From positions 96,001-160,000 of the forward strand of contig DAHWNL010000078.1 of NCBI GenBank assembly GCA_027339965.1: a DNA stretch of 64,000 nucleotides, written 5' to 3'. Below are positions 24,001-36,000 of this stretch, piece by piece. Position 1 is the stretch's first letter; each line of letters starts with the position of its first letter. This DNA is from Granulicella sp. GTDB taxonomy: Bacteria > Acidobacteriota > Terriglobia > Terriglobales > Acidobacteriaceae. The position numbers were made by a program.

Positions 24001-27000
24001 TTCGATCTTGATCTGATACATAGCAACGACACTGAGACGATCCGGTGCGCTTCAGTTGCATTCGATATTTCAAAGAGCTTGCAGGTGGAGGAGCGTTTTC
24101 GGACCGTTGGCTGAGATGCAGGTGCCGTGCCATACCTGGAACCAAACAACATTAAATTGATCGAAGGAGAAACGATGAAGCGCATTCTTTCAGTAACTTT
24201 CGTGTTGCTGAGCACAGCAGTTGCCGCGCAGGCGGGAACGATCCACGGTAAGGTGACCGGCGCCAAAGGGCAGTCCGTCGTCTACATTGACGCTATTGCA
24301 GGCAAGACCTTCCCTGCCCCATCGCAGCACGCGGTGATGGATCAAAAGGGTTTGATGTTCGCGCCCCATATTCTGGCGATCCTGAAGGGAACCACTGTGG
24401 ACTTCAAGAACGAAGACAGCGTGGAGCACAACGTGTTCTGGCCTTCCATCAGTGGCAACAAGAGTCTTGGCCACAATATGGGAACCTGGCCGACCGGTCA
24501 ACAACGCAGTTTCAAGTTCGATACTGCTGGAATCGTTCCCCTCCTCTGCAACGTGCATCCCGATATGTATGGTTTTATCGTGGTTTCGCCGACGCCCTAC
24601 TATGCAATAACCGACAAAACAGGCGCCTTCACGATCTCCAATGTTCCCAACGGCACCTATAGCGTGACTGGATGGAACGAGCGAGACAAGATGCGCACCC
24701 ACACCGTTCAGGTTACGGTAAACGGCGATGTAACAGCGACCATTCCCCTGAAGTGACAGGCGATCCTAGGGCGGGAAATCTCGCAATCCGGTTGCACCAT
24801 AGCGCCCCAGCAGAGAGACAGCCATCATGCTGAAGAGATTTGAAAACAAAGCGGTCGACGCGGGATGGCTGAACAGCAATTTCCCCTGCATGATGGCATG
24901 CCCGGCTCATACCAATGCGGGACGGTATGTTGCGCTTATTGCGGAAGGCAAGTACGAAGATGCCTATCGCTATGCGCGTGGTCCAAATCCTTTGGCCAGC
25001 GTCTGTGGCCGGGTTTGCGCTCACCCCTGCGAAACTGCCTGCCGCCGCGGTGAGATTGATCGCCCTATCTCGATCCGGGCTCTCAAACGCTTTTTGACCG
25101 AGCGTCACGGACCTGAGTCCCGGCGGCCCGTTGATATAAATGCTGGTCGCAGACAGGAAAAGCTGCCCTTCAAAATTGCGATTGTGGGAGCCGGACCGGT
25201 TGGCCTTTCAGCCGCTCATGACCTCGCGGTGATGGGCTACTCGGTCACAATCTTTGAGGCCGCGCCGGTAGCAGGCGGCATGCTCCATCTCGGTCTACCG
25301 GAGTACCGGCTTCCTCGCAGTGTGATCCAGGCGCAAGTACGCGAAATCCTTGCAACCGGAGATATCACGCTAAAACTCAACCATGCCGCGGGCCGAGATT
25401 TCACCGTCTCCGGCCTGCGCAGTCAGGGCTTCGATGCGGTTCTGATTGCCGTCGGAGCCCATCGCAGCCGCGACCTTTCCATTCCAGGAGTTGATCTCGA
25501 CGGCGTCCATAAGGGCATCGACTTCCTCCTGAACGTCAATCTTGGCTATCAATTCACCATCGGCAAGAAAGTGGTCGTGATTGGAGGCGGCAATGTCGCC
25601 ATGGATGTGGCCCGTTCGGCAGCCCGAGAGGTGCTTCGCCAGCATTCCGCTGGAGTGCAGGAACAGGAACCTCTCCAGGAGAATGTCAACGCTGTCGCTG
25701 CCAAGGAGATGATGGACATCTCCCTTTCAGCCCTTCGCCTCGGCGCCAGTGAAGTTCATCTGGTATGCCTTGAAAGCCGAGCAGAAATGCCCGCATCCGA
25801 CGAAGAGATCGCTGAAGCCGAGGAAGAAGGAATCATCCTGCACCCCGGACTCGGCCCAAAGCGTATGATCGGCGGCCCTGACGGCGTTACCGCCCTCGAA
25901 GTGCTTAAAACCAAGCAAGTCTTCGATGCGGACGGCCGCTTTAATCCCACATTCTATGAAAACAGCGAGTTTCAACTCGATTGCGACACAATCATCATGG
26001 CCATCGGCCAGGCTCCACGGCTTGACTTCCTCCAGCCGCAGGATGGGGTTGAAATCTCACGCCGGGGTCTGATCGCCGTAGAACCGCGCACGCTCATGAC
26101 CACATCTCCGGGAGTCTTTGCTGGTGGCGACTGCGCATTTGGACCCCGCCTGATCATCGACAGCGTCGCGGACGGCAAGCGAGCAGCGATGGGAATCGAT
26201 GAGTACCTCCGAGGGACTCGTCATCCGGAGCCGACGATCGAGGTCGAGGTCCTGCAACGCCACAGCATGCCGCTCAATCTCCTGGATCTTGTACGGAACG
26301 ACCCTCCCCTGCTTCCCCTGGACCGTCGGACCGGCGTCACCGAGGTCGAAACGGTTTACGACGAAGAGACAGCCCGGGCAGAAGCGCAACGCTGCCTACA
26401 CTGCTGGGTTAACACGATCTTCGAGGGCAGCCCCCTGGATGGAAGTCAATGCATCCTCTGTGGTGGTTGCGTGGATGTGTGCCCAGAGAATTGTCTTGAG
26501 CTGGTAAGCCTGGATCGCTTCGATTTCCAGCCAGCAGTCGTTGAACAGCTTGTTGCCAACGAGAGCCTCCTCACCGTGGAGCTGGATGATGTTCGAGCGA
26601 AGGAGCTTGGCACGATCTCCGGCTCCGTAATGCTGAAAGACGAGACGCGGTGCATCCGTTGCGGCCTCTGCGCAGCACGATGCCCGGTGGGCACGATCAC
26701 CATGGAATCCTACAACCTGATCCCGGCCGAACCGACCGGGCTCATCTCCCCTGAATCCATCGAAGCGCCTCTGCGCGCGACGTTGGCAAACAGAAAGTGA
26801 GCCAACTATGACCACTACAAAAGACACCTATATCGTTCAGGAAGGCGCGGTGCTCGATCGCAGGGAGTTTTTCACCAAGCTCGGTCTCGGCTCTCTGGGC
26901 GTTGCAGCCGTTGGTACATTGGCGTTTTACTACCAGTACCTTTCACCCAACGTACTCTTTGAACCATCCCCCATTGTGAACGCCGGAGCTATTGATCGGT

Positions 27001-33000: not shown

Positions 33001-36000
33001 AAATCTCGCCACAGTACACCGCATATACCCGTTTCAACGGCGGTTCGACGAACTACGATGGCTCTGGGCGCAACGCGAGCGCCAACAACACGTTCTATCT
33101 GGATGTTAAGTTCCTCTTTTGAAGCACTGCATGCGCAGCAATCGTATGCTTTGAAAGCGCTGTAGGAACCAGCTTGGATGAAGATCCATTCGCTTGAAAT
33201 GCGGCGCTTACACCCAACCTCAATTCAAGCTCCGGGGAAGAGGAATTCTTGTTTCGGTACAAATTCGCATTGCCTCGGCCGGGGATCGAATCTTGAGAGA
33301 ACCCTTTCTGGCGGGTGAGGGCGGAGGATGCAGTTGAAAGCTGAGCGGCGGTTCTACCCGATTCTGCAGGAATCGAGTTGCCAACCCTTTACTTACAACG
33401 AGAACCGCCGTGAAAAGAGCTTGCCGCACCATCCGCAAGCAAGTGAAACTGAACCTGGACAAGACGCTGGTTAGAGCCGCCATTCACGAAGATGGAAAGG
33501 GCGTGTGAAGAAGCCTTATTCGGCAGCTCCTCGATGCTTCCGCGGCCAGCTTGATCCCCTTTGTTCAGGGCTCGATAGCTGCGGGAAGCCTGGCTCATAC
33601 GAATGGCTAGCAGGGCTATTCGGCGCTGAAGGGCAACGGTTTCCAGCATCAGATCACCTATCTCAAAGGGAGGCCGGAAGCCGCTTCGGAGTTGTTGCCG
33701 CGAGTTCATCTGGGCGATCTCACTGCTGAAGCGATGGCTGATGGAAACCCCTCAGGGAGCGGTAAACCACAAACATCTGGACTACTTGGATGAGGTCGCC
33801 TTCCGGATCAACCGGCGCACCTCACGGAGCCTGGCAAGCTGTTTTATCGTTCGGCACAACAATCTGGGGCCGTCTATCCAGTTACTCGCCATCAAATCGC
33901 TCACCCCGCCGAAGAAAAACCGGTCGAAAAGCACAGCCGCTGCTGGATTTTGACGGGGCCGGGTGCAACCGAATAACCTCAGAGTGGCATCGGTCCATTG
34001 TATCGATGCAAACGAGGAGGATAGATGAACTTTTCACCTTCGGGAGCCAATACAGTTCTATCGGTAGCAGCGATTTCGCTCCTGATCTCCGCATTCCCCA
34101 AGGGTGCAATAGCTGTCCCCAGTTATGCGCGCCAAACCGGCCTCCCGTGCATCGGGTGCCACGATGACCCGCCGGAGTTGAACCCTGAGGGGCGGCTTTT
34201 CAAGTTGCTGGCCTATGTGTAGGGAGCGAGCTTCCTCGGCTCCATAAATGCAAAGAGCAGCGGGAAGAATGCTGGTTTGGATCTTCTCCACGCACTGCCT
34301 CTTTCTGTCATGTTGCAGACCTCATACACTTCACTGAACAGTCCAGAGCCAAATACCCAAAATGGGAACTTTGAGTTTCCCCAGAACATCTCCCTGTTTC
34401 TCTCCGGTGCCTGGACGAGCAACGTCGGCAGTTACCTTCAGGTTACATACGACACCCAAGCCAATCACTTCGGTATGGACAATACCGACATTCGGTTCGC
34501 AAACCAGACAAAGGTAGATGGTAAGGATCTTGTTTACGGACTTGACTTCAACAACAATCCGACGGTAGAAGATCTCTGGAACGACACGCCGGCATGGGGC
34601 GTCCCATTGATTCAAAGTGACTTTGCGCCAACGCCGGCGGCTGTTCCCATCATCGATGGCCCTCTGGGCCAGGAAGTTGCCGGATTCGGTGGTTACACCA
34701 TGTGGAACAGCCATGTGTATCTGGACGTGACAGCCTACACCTCAGAGCACATTGGCGCCTCACAACCAAACTCCGGAAATGGTTTCTCGTACAACATCCG
34801 TAACGCTGCACCCTACTGGCGTCTTGCCTACCAAGGACAGACAGCCACGACGCAGTATGAGATCGGAACCTATGGCATGCATATGCGCAGCAGTCCTAAT
34901 TCAGTCGTCGGTCCCCAGGATGATTACACCGACTACGCTTTCGACACCCAAATTGACCAATCGGTGTTCCAGACAGACGTGCTCTCGTTCCGAGGCAATT
35001 TCATCCGGGAAAACTCCGATTTGCAGGCCAGCCTGAACCAAGGATTGGCTTCTCAAGGAGGAAACCATCTGAATACTGGCACGGCTAACGTCCAGTATCT
35101 TATTGGCAGCAAATATTCAGGTACATTTGAGTGGTTTGAAACAAACGGCACAACCGATCCTCTGCGTTATGCTCCCGCTTCTGTTACCGGCAGTGCCAAT
35201 GGAAACCCGAGGAGCGCCGGATACATTCTCAACTTCTCGTACTGGCCATGGCAAAACCTTCAAATTTCGCCCCAATACACTGCGTATACACGTTTCAACG
35301 GTGGTTCGACGAACTACGATGGTTCTGGACGTAACGCCAACGCCAATAATACGTTCTACCTGGATGTGCAGTTCCTCTTTTGAATTGCCGTTTGCGCGGC
35401 AATCAAATACCTGAAAACACCGTATGGGCCAGCCCGAAAGGAGGTCCATTTGATTTGCTCACCCGGCAAGGAAGGTTTAGGGTGACCTGCTACCTGAAAG
35501 CTCTACCAGTTGGAACTGGAGTCCTCTCGTAATTGACCCGCCCCGCATGACTAAGCCAGAAGCGGCTGGAAAATCCGGCTTGCGTGGTTCGGTTCGGCCC
35601 GTGTTGACGGGCGGATTTGCAGATACTGTAGCTCAAGTGAGTGTCTCAAGTAACAGCGTTGAACCACTGTCGTTCTGCGCTGTGACAGCAGCCGTCGTCG
35701 TGCCATGGAAAAGTGGGAGGCGAGTAGCTGCTTCCACTTTTCCACGGCTGCAGATAGCCGCGAACTCCGCCGGTGTGCGGTCGTCCAGCGCAGAGTGCGG
35801 GCGCTGGTGGTTTGTAGTCGCGTCGCCAGAGGTGCAGCTTCCGGCGAGCGTCAGCCAGGTTCAAGGACACCTCCACGTTCAGGCACTCGTCGCGCAGCTT
35901 TCCGTTGAAGCTCTCGATGTAGTCGTTCTCTACCGGCCTGCCCGGGGGGATGAAGTTCAGATGCACACCGTTCCGATACGCCCAGTGGTCGAGCGCTTTA

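Follow-up and report, generated by a model that had tools for sequence, protein, structure and literature searches.

A Cyc2-family cytochrome-porin gene in an operon for an NAD(P)-linked Rieske/cytochrome b complex of Granulicella: a probable means of electron exchange with extracellular iron

Gene content of the operon and its surroundings

The window analysed here is a stretch of 64,000 nt from contig DAHWNL010000078.1 of Granulicella sp. (assembly GCA_027339965.1). Its forward strand carries a tight one-strand operon at 24175-33122, which begins with a cupredoxin gene and ends with the gene for a 452-aa cytochrome-porin; all the genes named in a preliminary description of this DNA are present where it had placed them. 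The first product is a periplasmic type-1 copper protein with a C-terminal Ig-like domain (24175..24756; Pfam Copper-bind 2e-5, besides CarboxypepD_reg/fn3_3 matches) and the ligand pattern H...C-x2-H-x2-M, whose best solved match is the blue copper domain 5fc9 (1e-6). Its gene starts with the ATG at 24175, with a GTG upstream at 24127, and the signal peptide begins at M17. There follow a GltD/NfnB-like FAD, NAD(P)-binding iron-sulfur flavoprotein (24827..26800; Pyr_redox_2 3e-33, Fer4_20 1e-20, Fer4), a Rieske [2Fe-2S] protein with a twin-arginine signal-anchor (26808..27299; Rieske 2e-8), a b6-type four-helix cytochrome b (27303..28094; Cytochrome_B 6e-45) and a subunit IV-like membrane protein with the Qo motif A-P-W-Y (28091..28795; Cytochrom_B_C 1e-7), in which a simple hydropathy scan reveals about five hydrophobic segments.

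Downstream lie the genes for two c-type cytochromes and the porin. The octahaem cytochrome c (28796..30853; 8 CxxCH; Cytochrom_C 8e-38 in 5 stretches) is anchored in the membrane by an N-terminal hydrophobic segment, residues 11-44, and is built from four closely spaced haems and then four class-I c domains; a search for a solved relative at 1e-5 found none. The monohaem c-type lipoprotein (30850..31584; Big_1 5e-7, Cytochrome_CBB3 6e-7) has an Ig-like domain, the lipobox V-S-G-C and one CxxCH, and its gene is also found in the modules of close relatives. The cytochrome-porin gene occupies 31764..33122. The intergenic gaps, in operon order, are 70, 7, 3, -4, 0, -4 and 179 nt.

A tandem copy of the porin gene (34025..35383, forward strand) forms a direct repeat with the intact one, 2261 nt from start to start and 84% identical. 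Its earlier description as a pseudogene is borne out by translation, which reveals only one in-frame TAG, codon 66 (34220-34222); contigs covering the site, from 4 runs in as many studies, show no change there, and one contig links the first copy to the second. Beyond it, an integrase-core transposase gene on the reverse strand (35646..36593; rve 7e-17, rve_3, HTH_21) marks the boundary and lies outside the system. On the other side, an ECF sigma factor with a fused or neighbouring anti-sigma zinc finger (21941..22966, reverse strand; Sigma70_r2, Sigma70_r4_2, zf-HC2) is encoded divergently from the operon and is a possible regulator. The G+C content is 0.54-0.56 over 24-36 kb, against 0.58-0.63 on both flanks.

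A third, intact paralog, 49% identical to the window porin, is located at 22157-23476 in contig numbering; as described before, it directly precedes a Rieske gene and a gene for a 910-aa fusion of cytochrome b with four class-I c domains. Since the genome also has a separate caa3 oxidase plus a Rieske/b-c operon, both Cyc2-linked complexes are extra.

Cyc2-family membership of the porin

Sequence comparison supports the earlier assignment of the porin to the Cyc2 family of fused monohaem cytochrome-porins, now also by direct alignment with orthologues of Cyt572, a purified iron oxidase. The haem motif reads A-V-P-S-Y-A-R-Q-T, three residues, CxxCH (the only one, at residue 42), three residues and P-E-L, with the same spacing as in the Cyt572 orthologues; because Y stands for F, a replacement already noticed, the protein fails the strict published screen P-x-F-A-R. 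In BLASTP against a Cyt572 orthologue the window porin gave E 4e-9 and the third paralog 1e-9, while profile-profile alignment of the window porin with the Cyt572 orthologues by hhalign gave 97.2% probability and E 4e-11 over 153 columns; this similarity is limited to the N-terminal third, the remainder of the barrel being unaligned. Exactly one CxxCH is present in all 116 full-length representatives. Eleven haem-region residues had been called invariant among 25 relatives; in an alignment of 68 sequences Q37, C42, C45, H46 and L52 remain so, and only G56 and F59 join them, while A30, P32, T38 and P50 are conserved at 90% or more and A35 and R36 at less than 90%.

The structure model, formerly judged of low confidence, has a mean pLDDT of 89.9 and a pTM of 0.87, with 16 long strands. 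OmpT, OmpU, chitoporin and AlgE have the best Foldseek E-values; OprP (2o4v) and OprO (4rjw/4rjx), which had been listed among the best matches, do have the highest query-normalised TM-scores among the matches (0.47-0.48), but stand at ranks 38, 45 and 46. As before, no Pfam or NCBIfam match was found for the porin, nor any PDB sequence match, and its 5298 relatives agree with the previous figure of over 5000. The Cyc2-like family comprises 4129 clusters (50% identity, E up to 0.001), and its records include the names Bradyrhizobium and Asticcacaulis, organisms without known iron metabolism; according to passages of Keffer et al. (PMC8406198), it is uncertain what distant Cyc2 homologs do.

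The NAD(P)-linked complex and its association with Cyc2-family genes

The flavoprotein (657 aa) is cytoplasmic and without membrane segment; it matches NF009410 with 453 bits, carries a C-terminal 2x[4Fe-4S] domain, and its invariant Cys groups are compatible with four FeS clusters. Its best solved matches are NfnA 9n5u (4e-91), 9bov/9bp5 and NfnB 4ylf. Its gene, only 7 nt from the Rieske gene, occupies the same place in 24/24 module loci and in 5/5 Leptospirales loci, confirming that the NAD(P) oxidoreductase belongs to the cluster; we infer that the protein docks on the Rieske/b complex as a physical subunit. For the Rieske protein, the closest solved structure, a relationship new to this analysis, is 9rk4 (E 4e-24; runner-up 8e-17), that is Kuste4569 of an anammox NAD(P)-linked complex; its box II, C-P-C-H-G-S-R-F, shares its Ser/Phe pair with Kustd1480. 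The b6 protein aligns with spinach and cyanobacterial b6 (5e-44), but has Tyr in place of the Cys that binds haem c_n; the anammox models include this haem, and the missing Cys counts against the electron path proposed below. On the ExtP model NF040969 it scores 263 bits, under the cut-off of 290. The A-P-W-Y motif was found by pattern match in 22 of the 24 module loci; complexes of this type have been proposed, in passages of PMC4122944, to accept electrons from the high-potential side.

The preliminary description tied the porins to Rieske/cytochrome b complexes, and this linkage is conserved well beyond the window. A Cyc2-family gene is present in cis at all 24 genome loci with the NAD(P)-linked Rieske/b module, distributed over many families, a finding not contained in that description. 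Six of these loci have the window porin subtype and 18 a Cyt572-like subtype with the motif F-A-R-K-Y and one haem, in every case (18/18) directly upstream of the cupredoxin gene, which is also the first module gene in the 23 other module loci. The window gene order or a porin-first variant recurs in 5 of 12 other Acidobacteriota genome loci, and in metagenomes the window porin is linked to the module in 36 of 80 loci, with 3 more partial and 12 that end just past the cupredoxin gene; linkage to the cytochrome b-c fusion type was found in 3 genome and 9 metagenome loci. A quick tree indicates, again for the first time, that the position of the window-subtype porin gene shifted at least three times with the linkage kept. 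These gene arrangements support a functional tie between the porin and Rieske/cytochrome b complexes.

Another new observation is that 5/5 Cyt572-bearing Leptospirales/Nitrospirae MAGs, of a lineage known for obligate aerobic iron oxidation, encode the NAD(P)-linked module too, though without linkage to the Cyt572 gene. It consists there of the GltD-like protein, Rieske protein, b6 (52-54% identical), an APWY subunit IV and a tetrahaem c.

Electron exchange with extracellular iron and its direction

The operon probably allows the bacterium to exchange electrons between extracellular iron and its own metabolism. In the proposed path, the single haem of the outer-membrane porin would trade electrons with Fe2+/Fe3+ entering the pore; cupredoxin and the monohaem lipoprotein would carry them across the periplasm, and the octahaem c would pass them on to, or take them from, the Rieske centre of the APWY-type b6/subunit IV complex, whose low-potential b-haem branch may be linked with NAD(P)+/NAD(P)H by way of the GltD/NfnB-like subunit, through its FAD and four FeS clusters. 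The whole would be a trans-envelope route for electrons between external soluble iron and the quinone and NAD(P) pools of the cell. This path is compatible with electron uptake from Fe(II) as well as with the reduction of Fe(III); a net inward flow is our tentative choice, held at somewhat less than even confidence and only slightly more likely than an outward one. In the inward case Fe(II) would be oxidised at the cell surface, as in Leptospirillum and Acidithiobacillus, and the NAD(P)-linked complex would serve the NAD(P)H branch by sending quinol electrons partly into the high-potential chain and partly to NAD(P)+; the remaining branches would fall to the caa3 oxidase and to the paralogous Cyc2 plus Rieske/cytochrome b-c4 module. 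Of the earlier proposal of an Fe2+ uptake module coupled to a bc complex, the Cyc2 porin, the linkage and the NAD(P) gene stand, whereas iron as the substrate and the inward direction we can only infer; its own caveat on direction holds.

Against inward flow, the reducing power of Fe2+ at low pH falls far short of what a Rieske centre or menaquinone would demand, and if quinol is to yield NAD(P)H, the complex requires its periplasmic chain as a sink, not as a donor. The same wiring could therefore run in reverse as the quinol:Fe(III) oxidoreductase of a heterotroph, a serious and plausible rival that we rate below the inward reading: menaquinol would be oxidised at Qo, one electron passing via Rieske, octahaem c, cupredoxin/monohaem c and porin to soluble Fe(III), and the other being driven uphill to NAD(P)+ by way of b haems and FeS clusters. 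Fe(III) at low pH is an acceptor as strong as oxygen; NAD(P)H would store the energy of the large drop to it, which no proton pump could use outside the cell. A RuBisCO large subunit was looked for in the 98.9% complete genome and not found, so that there is no evident demand for the uphill NAD(P)H of an autotroph. The window DNA occurs in mine-drainage, tailings, sediment and wastewater metagenomes of 7 studies, some possibly the source sample; this habitat speaks for either direction. The anammox homologues, with the Ser/Phe pair of the window protein recurring in Kustd1480, are proposed to work exactly in this manner, with a periplasmic high-potential sink and Rieske potentials above +300 mV (passages of PMC12954380), and Cyc2, rusticyanin and bc1 of A. 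ferrooxidans have been proposed to run toward Fe(III) when oxygen is absent (PMC7735108 and PMC8790237, in part). Cultured acidophilic Acidobacteria are reported, in passages of the latter, as Fe(III) reducers and not Fe(II) oxidisers, with micro-aerobic Fe(III) reduction in Acidobacterium capsulatum and Acidicapsa species; in Geobacter, the ExtOPQS Rieske/cytochrome b set, to whose ExtP model the window b6 has its sub-threshold similarity, is clustered with an outer-membrane porin-cytochrome conduit (PMC5877670, in part). Against outward flow, biochemical tests of Cyc2-family proteins, three in number, were all assays for Fe(II) oxidase activity, according to passages of PMC8406198; the Leptospirales that carry the module belong to a lineage known for iron oxidation, and a heterotroph is already rich in catabolic NAD(P)H.

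That the linked porin and complex serve a small redox-active partner other than iron (Mn, Cu, humic quinones, S or N species), or redox-stress protection or sensing in place of energy conservation, appears rather unlikely. The cupredoxin and c-type carriers that belong to the module core could work with more than one partner, the very large family has records from organisms such as Bradyrhizobium, and additional functions of Cyc2 are considered by Keffer et al. (PMC8406198, in part); however, within the family only Fe2+/Fe3+ have been tested as substrates, the DNA comes from an iron-rich habitat, the narrow 16-strand pore with its internal haem suits a small aquo-ion, and the two Cyc2 subtypes interchange beside the same module, which argues for a shared family function. 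A meaningless adjacency, with the porin brought by a mobile island and the flavoprotein acting as an independent cytoplasmic enzyme, is very improbable: the lower-G+C stretch lies beside a transposase gene and a decayed duplicate, and a search of two same-genus genomes turned up neither porin nor octahaem c, but the Cyc2-family gene accompanies every module locus across many families and through repeated rearrangement, and the flavoprotein gene keeps its place in all of them as well as in the Leptospirales.

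The haem-porin and its operon

The genes at 24175-33122 (+) of the window form a series of eight tightly packed reading frames, with intergenic gaps of 70, 7, 3, -4, 0, -4 and 179 nt, and their content bears out the cluster and the porin noticed in the preliminary description. The first encodes a secreted cupredoxin (Pfam Copper-bind, 2e-5) whose C-terminal domain is Ig-like; the second a cytoplasmic flavoprotein of 657 aa of the GltD/NfnB kind, which contains Fer4_20 and Pyr_redox_2 domains and two C-terminal ferredoxin-type sites. These are followed by a Rieske protein with a twin-arginine anchor, a four-helix cytochrome b6 (27303-28094, +), a subunit IV-like protein, a cytochrome c with an N-terminal membrane anchor and 8 CxxCH sites (hereafter the octahaem c), a monohaem c-type lipoprotein with an Ig-like domain and, as the last gene, the porin (31764-33122, +), a protein of 452 aa with a signal peptide and one CxxCH. 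The latter is without any Pfam, NCBIfam or PDB sequence match; the PDB search returned chance-level matches only (E 0.046 and 0.47).

A tandem copy of the porin gene, 84% identical, lies at 34025-35383 and contains one in-frame TAG at codon 66. The site is covered by contigs of four runs from four studies, none of which lists a difference, thus the stop codon is real; both copies are also bridged by one contig. The same contig carries, 105 kb upstream, a third paralog (49% identical), which is immediately followed by a Rieske gene and a gene for a cytochrome b fused to four class-I c domains (b-c4). The cluster has a G+C content of 0.54-0.56, against 0.58-0.63 in its surroundings, and is bounded by a divergent ECF sigma/anti-sigma gene before its start and by an rve transposase gene at its end. 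Within or beside this transposase gene, contigs of three runs (X4, X8, X10) skip 168 bases at 36052-36221, which makes this a variant of the insertion element in the population. Shortly after the iron cluster and its flanking transposase, a 472-aa protein (37949-39367, +) matches the middle domain of hydrazine synthase alpha (PF18582, 4e-15), and about 1.7 kb further on a 712-aa beta-propeller protein (41040-43178, +) carries a C-terminal CCP_MauG-like c-type haem region.

The genome also encodes a third Rieske/cytochrome b-c complex, which shares an operon with a caa3-type oxidase, as well as a second haem-copper oxidase; because of these, the two Cyc2-linked complexes are accessory. No RuBisCO large subunit was found in the genome, which is 98.9% complete, and the search for NiFe hydrogenase gave a single weak partial match (26.5 bits); the search for ATP-citrate-lyase domains was empty, but its controls were silent as well, hence it is uninformative. 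DNA of the cluster occurs in runs from 7 studies, labelled as mine drainage, mine tailings, sediment and wastewater metagenomes, three of the samples possibly being the source of the assembly itself. No RNA run is among those listed as carrying the operon, a result that has no bearing on expression.

Keffer et al. 2021 recognize Cyc2 proteins by a signal peptide, a single CxxCH preceded by the motif A-x-P-x-F-A-R-[QK]-[TY] and followed by P-x-L, a length of at least 365 residues and a 16-strand porin (PMC8406198). All of these sequence and fold features were found in the window porin, with the exception of a Tyr in place of Phe in the motif. Its hydrophobic N-terminus ends with A-M-A before V-P-S-Y, a predicted cleavage site that aligns residue for residue with that of the orthologues of Cyt572, whose mature N-terminus has been determined by sequencing (PMC13741234). 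The motif, A-V-P-S-Y-A-R-Q-T, agrees at 8 of 9 positions, and because of its Tyr the protein does not pass the screen in its strict published form; Phe is found in the paralog of this contig, and among 79 family representatives fitting a relaxed pattern 66 have Phe and 13 Tyr. Three residues separate the motif from the CxxCH at residue 42, as in the Cyt572 orthologues, and exactly one CxxCH is present in all 116 full-length family representatives. The haem site continues as C-N-G-C-H-Y-D-P-P-E-L, where, across 68 sequences, L52 never varies and P50 is conserved to at least 90%. In this wider alignment fewer residues are invariant than were listed in the preliminary description, L52 being one of those retained.

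The structure prediction, previously described as of low confidence, is in fact a high-confidence one: the AlphaFold2 model, built with 68 family sequences, has a mean pLDDT of 89.9, a pTM of 0.87 and 16 long strands. A Foldseek search with this model gave 372 PDB matches at E <= 0.001, led by porins of 16-18 strands; OprP (2o4v) and OprO (4rjw/4rjx), which Keffer et al. gave as templates for Cyc2 (PMC8406198), come 38th, 45th and 46th in the list, with the highest TM-scores when these are normalised to the query, and PorB, reported for Cyt572, is also among the matches.

A comparison with a characterised member, which had not been possible before, was made with six Leptospirillum Cyt572 orthologues, found through a DNA pattern for the published mature N-terminus (PMC13741234); these derive from Leptospirales/Nitrospirae MAGs, measure 548-560 aa and have the published haem site C-S-F-C-H. 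Homology was found in the N-terminal third. BLASTP aligned the window porin with a Cyt572 orthologue at E 4e-9 (28% over 101 residues) and the paralog at 1e-9 (40% over 65 residues), and hhalign aligned the porin and Cyt572 profiles with 97.2% probability and E 4e-11 over 153 columns, confined to the N-terminal third, with cleavage site, motif, haem site and P-x-L in exact register; the barrels do not align past about residue 176. Cyt572 of Leptospirillum group II, placed in Cluster 3 by Keffer et al. 2021 (PMC8406198), thus resembles the window porin in that its signal peptide ends immediately ahead of the motif, a single CxxCH is present, the distances between motif, haem site and P-x-L are the same and a porin barrel follows, with the first ~100-150 residues alignable. 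The two differ in size and motif (452 aa and Y-A-R-Q-T in the window porin, 548-560 aa and F-A-R-K-Y in Cyt572) and in gene place, since the former belongs to an operon while Leptospirillum cyt572 is reported apart from its partners (PMC10654088).

On the basis of sequence and predicted fold the window porin is classified as a member of the Cyc2 family; the assignment is made at family level, without a cluster (1, 2 or 3), because the direct comparison covered Cyt572 orthologues only. The best 150 representatives of the porin profile search reach only E 1e-71, and the ten cluster names sampled, from an FCB-group MAG and Bradyrhizobium MAGs, were only 'cytochrome C' or 'hypothetical'. A protein search started from a distant family member named only Pseudomonadota and Alphaproteobacteria MAGs and Asticcacaulis. 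In the protein atlas, the closest neighbours are clusters of unnamed Acidobacteriota and Pseudomonadota proteins of the 'cytochrome c family', and Porin_O_P is carried by only 20% of one neighbour cluster, which is a lead only. In the similarity network of Li et al., Cyt572 joins a dense cluster of Acidobacteria and Nitrospira homologs (PMC10654088). One family representative, the metagenomic protein P0199 (641 aa), named 'cytochrome b561' at source, has an N-terminus about 190 residues longer; it may join a membrane cytochrome of the b type to a Cyc2-type porin, or be an artefact of gene calling.

The Rieske/cytochrome b complex and its flavoprotein

The Rieske protein of the operon has as its best PDB match 9rk4 (E 4e-24), followed at 8e-17 by the next one and at 2e-16 by 9rk3 (Kustd1480). 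The 9rk4 structure is Kuste4569, the Rieske subunit of one of two Kuenenia complexes which, as described by Hauser et al. 2025 (PMC12954380), also comprise b6, a five-helix subunit IV, a hexa- or octahaem c and an NAD(P) oxidoreductase, and which have been proposed to split the electrons of quinol between a high-potential acceptor and NAD(P)+ (PMC12954380). In box II the window protein has Ser and Phe, as does Kustd1480, for which a potential of +335 mV was measured (PMC12954380); the pattern C-P-C-H-G-S-x-[FY] is found in all 24 loci where the module was analyzed, that is the window, five linked loci of other genomes and 18 loci retrieved through the octahaem c.

The split of b6 and subunit IV is clear, and a simple hydropathy window indicates about five hydrophobic segments in subunit IV. 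The Qo motif of the latter is K-A-P-W-Y, with APWY recognized by pattern at 22 of the 24 loci. Kao and Hunte (2014) described an 'APWY clade' of uncharacterised complexes, in which the Rieske proteins are of the Ser-Phe or Ser-Tyr type and have mid-plus to high potentials, and suggested that its electrons come from the high-potential side (PMC4122944); by motif patterns, both the Qo motif and the Rieske type of this clade are present in the window complex. All four b-haem histidines of b6 are kept, and a Tyr aligns with Cys35, the residue that binds haem c_n, which implies that the N-side chemistry must differ from that of b6f and of the published anammox models.

The best solved relatives of the flavoprotein are NfnA 9n5u (4e-91), the NfnABC chain 9bov/9bp5 and NfnB 4ylf, and its invariant Cys groups fit four FeS clusters. 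Its gene occupies the same position in all 24 Acidobacteriota loci and in 5 of 5 Leptospirales loci. Modelling of b6 and subunit IV together with residues 470-657 of the flavoprotein, from alignments, gave an unspecific score, since a control with chain 1 replaced scored about equally, and was given no weight in either direction.

Among the closest described systems are the clusters Kuste4569-4574 and Kustd1480-1485 of Kuenenia stuttgartiensis, which likewise encode together a Rieske protein, b6, a subunit IV (enlarged in Kuenenia) and a FAD/FeS NAD(P) oxidoreductase, with a hexa- or octahaem c in the place of cytochrome f, as for the 8-CxxCH protein of the window; Nfn proteins, the solved relatives of the window flavoprotein, also served as templates for the Kuenenia oxidoreductases (PMC12954380). 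Differently from Kuenenia, the window has no HAO-like octahaem protein, adds a cupredoxin and an outer-membrane Cyc2-type porin, has a b6 without the Cys for covalent haem c_n, and belongs to an acidobacterium, without anammoxosome. Because of the Tyr at the haem c_n position the window system is considered a relative or variant of the anammox complex, not the same complex; the features of the anammox type are those given by Hauser et al. 2025 (PMC12954380) and, as they cite it, by Kartal et al. 2013, and the direct comparison with anammox proteins is that of the Rieske subunit only.

Two other arrangements share part of this equipment. In Geobacter sulfurreducens, a porin-cytochrome conduit of the outer membrane is encoded in one cluster, extHIJKLMNOPQS, with a Rieske protein, a cytochrome b, their small partner in the membrane and cytochromes of the c type (PMC5877670); that conduit consists of a separate porin and multihaem cytochromes, whereas the window porin is a fused monohaem one, and the ext cluster lacks the flavoprotein and the cupredoxin. 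The window b6, subunit IV and octahaem c do match the models of Geobacter ExtP, ExtQ and ExtS, but with NCBIfam scores all under the curated thresholds, hence they are not equivalogs of the Ext proteins.

In Acidithiobacillus ferrooxidans, the rus operon has the order cyc2-cyc1-cup-coxBACD-rus, and petI/petII encode bc1 complexes that serve the uphill or the Fe(III)-directed path. Cyc2 in the outer membrane, a blue copper protein of the periplasm, cytochromes c and a Rieske/cytochrome b complex are shared with the window; there they link iron with the quinone and NAD pools, as predicted for the window too, and both directions have been proposed (PMC10654088, PMC7735108, PMC8790237). The window, however, assembles all its parts in a single operon and has no oxidase; its complex has a split b6/subunit IV with APWY, as opposed to the proteobacterial bc1 with PPWY (PMC4122944), and its NAD(P) link is an operon-encoded flavoprotein instead of a reversed NADH dehydrogenase.

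Conservation of the linkage in Acidobacteriota, and the module in Leptospirales

A porin of the window subtype (motif of the Y-A-R-Q-T type) was found in 14 of 401 sampled Acidobacteriota genomes and was not found in the two same-genus genomes searched. Five of the 13 matches in other genomes adjoin the same set of cupredoxin, flavoprotein, Rieske, b6, subunit IV and octahaem c, the porin gene being last in two of these, as in the window, and first in three. The remaining eight lie beside a Rieske/cytochrome b-c4 set (3), cupredoxins only (2) or nothing recognizable (1), or were too short or weak to judge (2). Between two cupredoxins sits the window-subtype porin of locus L013, in genome G014.

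Among the 80 best metagenome loci, NAD(P)-linked core genes are adjacent in 36 (porin first in 28, last in 8) and partial in 3 more, and a b-c4 set is present in 9, one of them a weak 31% match. Twelve loci stop right after the cupredoxin and five show a cupredoxin only; no neighbour was recognized in 14 with short flanks and in a single one with at least 3 kb on either side. A quick maximum-likelihood IQ-TREE tree of 84 porins, in which the long branches of two loci (L019 and L014) are unreliable, requires at least three switches between the 'porin last' and other arrangements.

The octahaem c is commoner than the window porin, being found in 49 of the 401 Acidobacteriota genomes at E <= 1e-40, in about 32 of them near full length. 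From these, 18 loci without a match to the window porin were selected and fetched, and all 18 contain the six-gene core in the same order. Since they gave no tblastn match, the module at first seemed to occur usually without a Cyc2 gene; a motif scan and inspection of the open reading frames overturned this view. In all 18 loci the flanking reading frames include, directly upstream of the cupredoxin gene and on the same strand, another Cyc2-family gene, coding for a protein of 411-571 aa with one CxxCH and the motif P-x-F-A-R-K-Y (or S-R-Q-Y). Six of these second-subtype proteins, from the window's taxonomic family (518-571 aa), match the Cyt572 orthologues over ~200-267 residues with E values of 1e-11 to 1e-15.

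Thus, a Cyc2-family gene is present in cis at 24 of 24 module loci, 6 with the window subtype and 18 with the second one; no locus among the 24 has both, and no trace of the second subtype was detected in the window's genome. That one subtype replaces the other while the module beside it stays unchanged argues strongly that a Cyc2-type partner is required by the module.

Some loci show additional features. At L014 (G009:C119, 5874-10992) both Cyc2 subtypes stand back to back, each with a cupredoxin gene beside it, and the 20 kb fetched contain no Rieske/cytochrome b gene. In the modules of four close relatives, the monohaem lipoprotein gene is followed not by a porin gene, as in the window, but by a gene for a conserved secreted protein without haem site, 416-450 aa long (L021:6964-8265(-), L022:11743-13092(+), L023:1887-3134(-), L024:6985-8232(-)). 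A second cupredoxin gene lies upstream of the Cyt572-like porin gene in L023, L024 and L025 (genomes G147, G239 and G384), and beyond it, in L023 and L025, there is a reading frame whose N-terminus resembles by eye a response-regulator receiver domain.

The module is also found outside the Acidobacteriota. All five Cyt572-bearing Leptospirales/Nitrospirae MAGs searched encode, in this order, a GltD-like flavoprotein, Rieske, b6, subunit IV and a tetrahaem c; identity to the window proteins is 38-40% for the flavoprotein over its full length and 52-54% for b6, subunit IV has APWY and the Rieske protein is of the Ser-Tyr type. In these MAGs cyt572 and the module are on different contigs. According to Li et al., the components do not form a cluster in Leptospirillum, whose bc complex has its nearest neighbours in Brocadiales, Desulfobacterota and Nitrospinales (PMC10654088); no paper naming a flavoprotein in the Leptospirillum bc operon was found in the open literature.

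The literature already describes Cyc2 homologs of Acidobacteria, as well as anammox complexes of the NAD(P)-linked Rieske/cytochrome b type. Open-access papers and bioRxiv yielded no description of an obligatory pairing of Cyc2 with the NAD(P)-linked complex in one operon with a cupredoxin, nor of the module in Cyt572-bearing Leptospirales.

Predicted electron flow and its direction

Gene content and linkage give good support to a predicted wiring that would connect an outer-membrane haem-porin, periplasmic copper and haem carriers, the octahaem c, the Rieske/b6 complex and the flavoprotein, in this sequence, with NAD(P). A chance adjacency of porin and complex is very hard to credit. It is also improbable, if less so, that the system handles another substrate or serves another role. 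Fe(II) oxidation is the tested activity of three Cyc2-family members (PMC8406198), a finding that speaks for an inward flow of electrons, from Fe(II) to the complex. This latter direction is the one we tentatively prefer, and it is also in agreement with the presence of the module in Leptospirales, with the parallel with rusticyanin and with the view of Kao and Hunte on APWY complexes (PMC4122944).

An outward flow, with reduction of Fe(III), is nonetheless only slightly less likely. If NAD(P)H is made from quinol, as in the anammox proposal, the chain in the periplasm has to act as the sink, and the potential of Fe3+ is high at low pH; Cyc2, rusticyanin and bc1 have been proposed to work in reverse in A. 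ferrooxidans (PMC7735108, PMC8790237), Fe(III) reduction has been reported for Acidobacterium and Acidicapsa (PMC8790237), and the host is apparently heterotrophic. The complex also touches the question of how NAD(P)H is gained by iron-oxidising bacteria, whose reductant is a very weak one.

A more far-reaching proposal, which we consider speculative and unlikely as a whole, is that in Acidobacteriota and Leptospirales the Cyc2-family porin and an anammox-type Rieske/b6 complex with built-in NAD(P) reductase would constitute one dedicated machine, directly coupling extracellular Fe3+/Fe2+ to NAD(P)H by quinol-based electron bifurcation. If this were true, in iron oxidisers the machine would represent the long-sought route to reducing power, in place of a reversed complex I, and in acidophilic heterotrophs the energy of electron transfer to extracellular Fe(III), which proton pumps cannot reach, would be conserved as NAD(P)H. 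The two paralogous Cyc2 and Rieske/cytochrome b modules of the window's genome would then be two halves of a single scheme, one lifting electrons from iron to quinol, driven by the membrane potential, and the other bifurcating quinol.

The role of NAD(P)-linked Rieske/cytochrome b complexes has so far been discussed for anammox bacteria. This type of complex is common in Acidobacteriota, where it adjoins a Cyc2-family iron-oxidase homolog at every locus examined; together with its presence in Cyt572-bearing Leptospirales, this points to a general link between iron and pyridine nucleotides. Acidobacteriota are abundant in acid soils, peat and mine waters, where the module would be relevant for iron cycling, and they offer culturable, aerobic hosts in which the bifurcation hypothesis can be tested.
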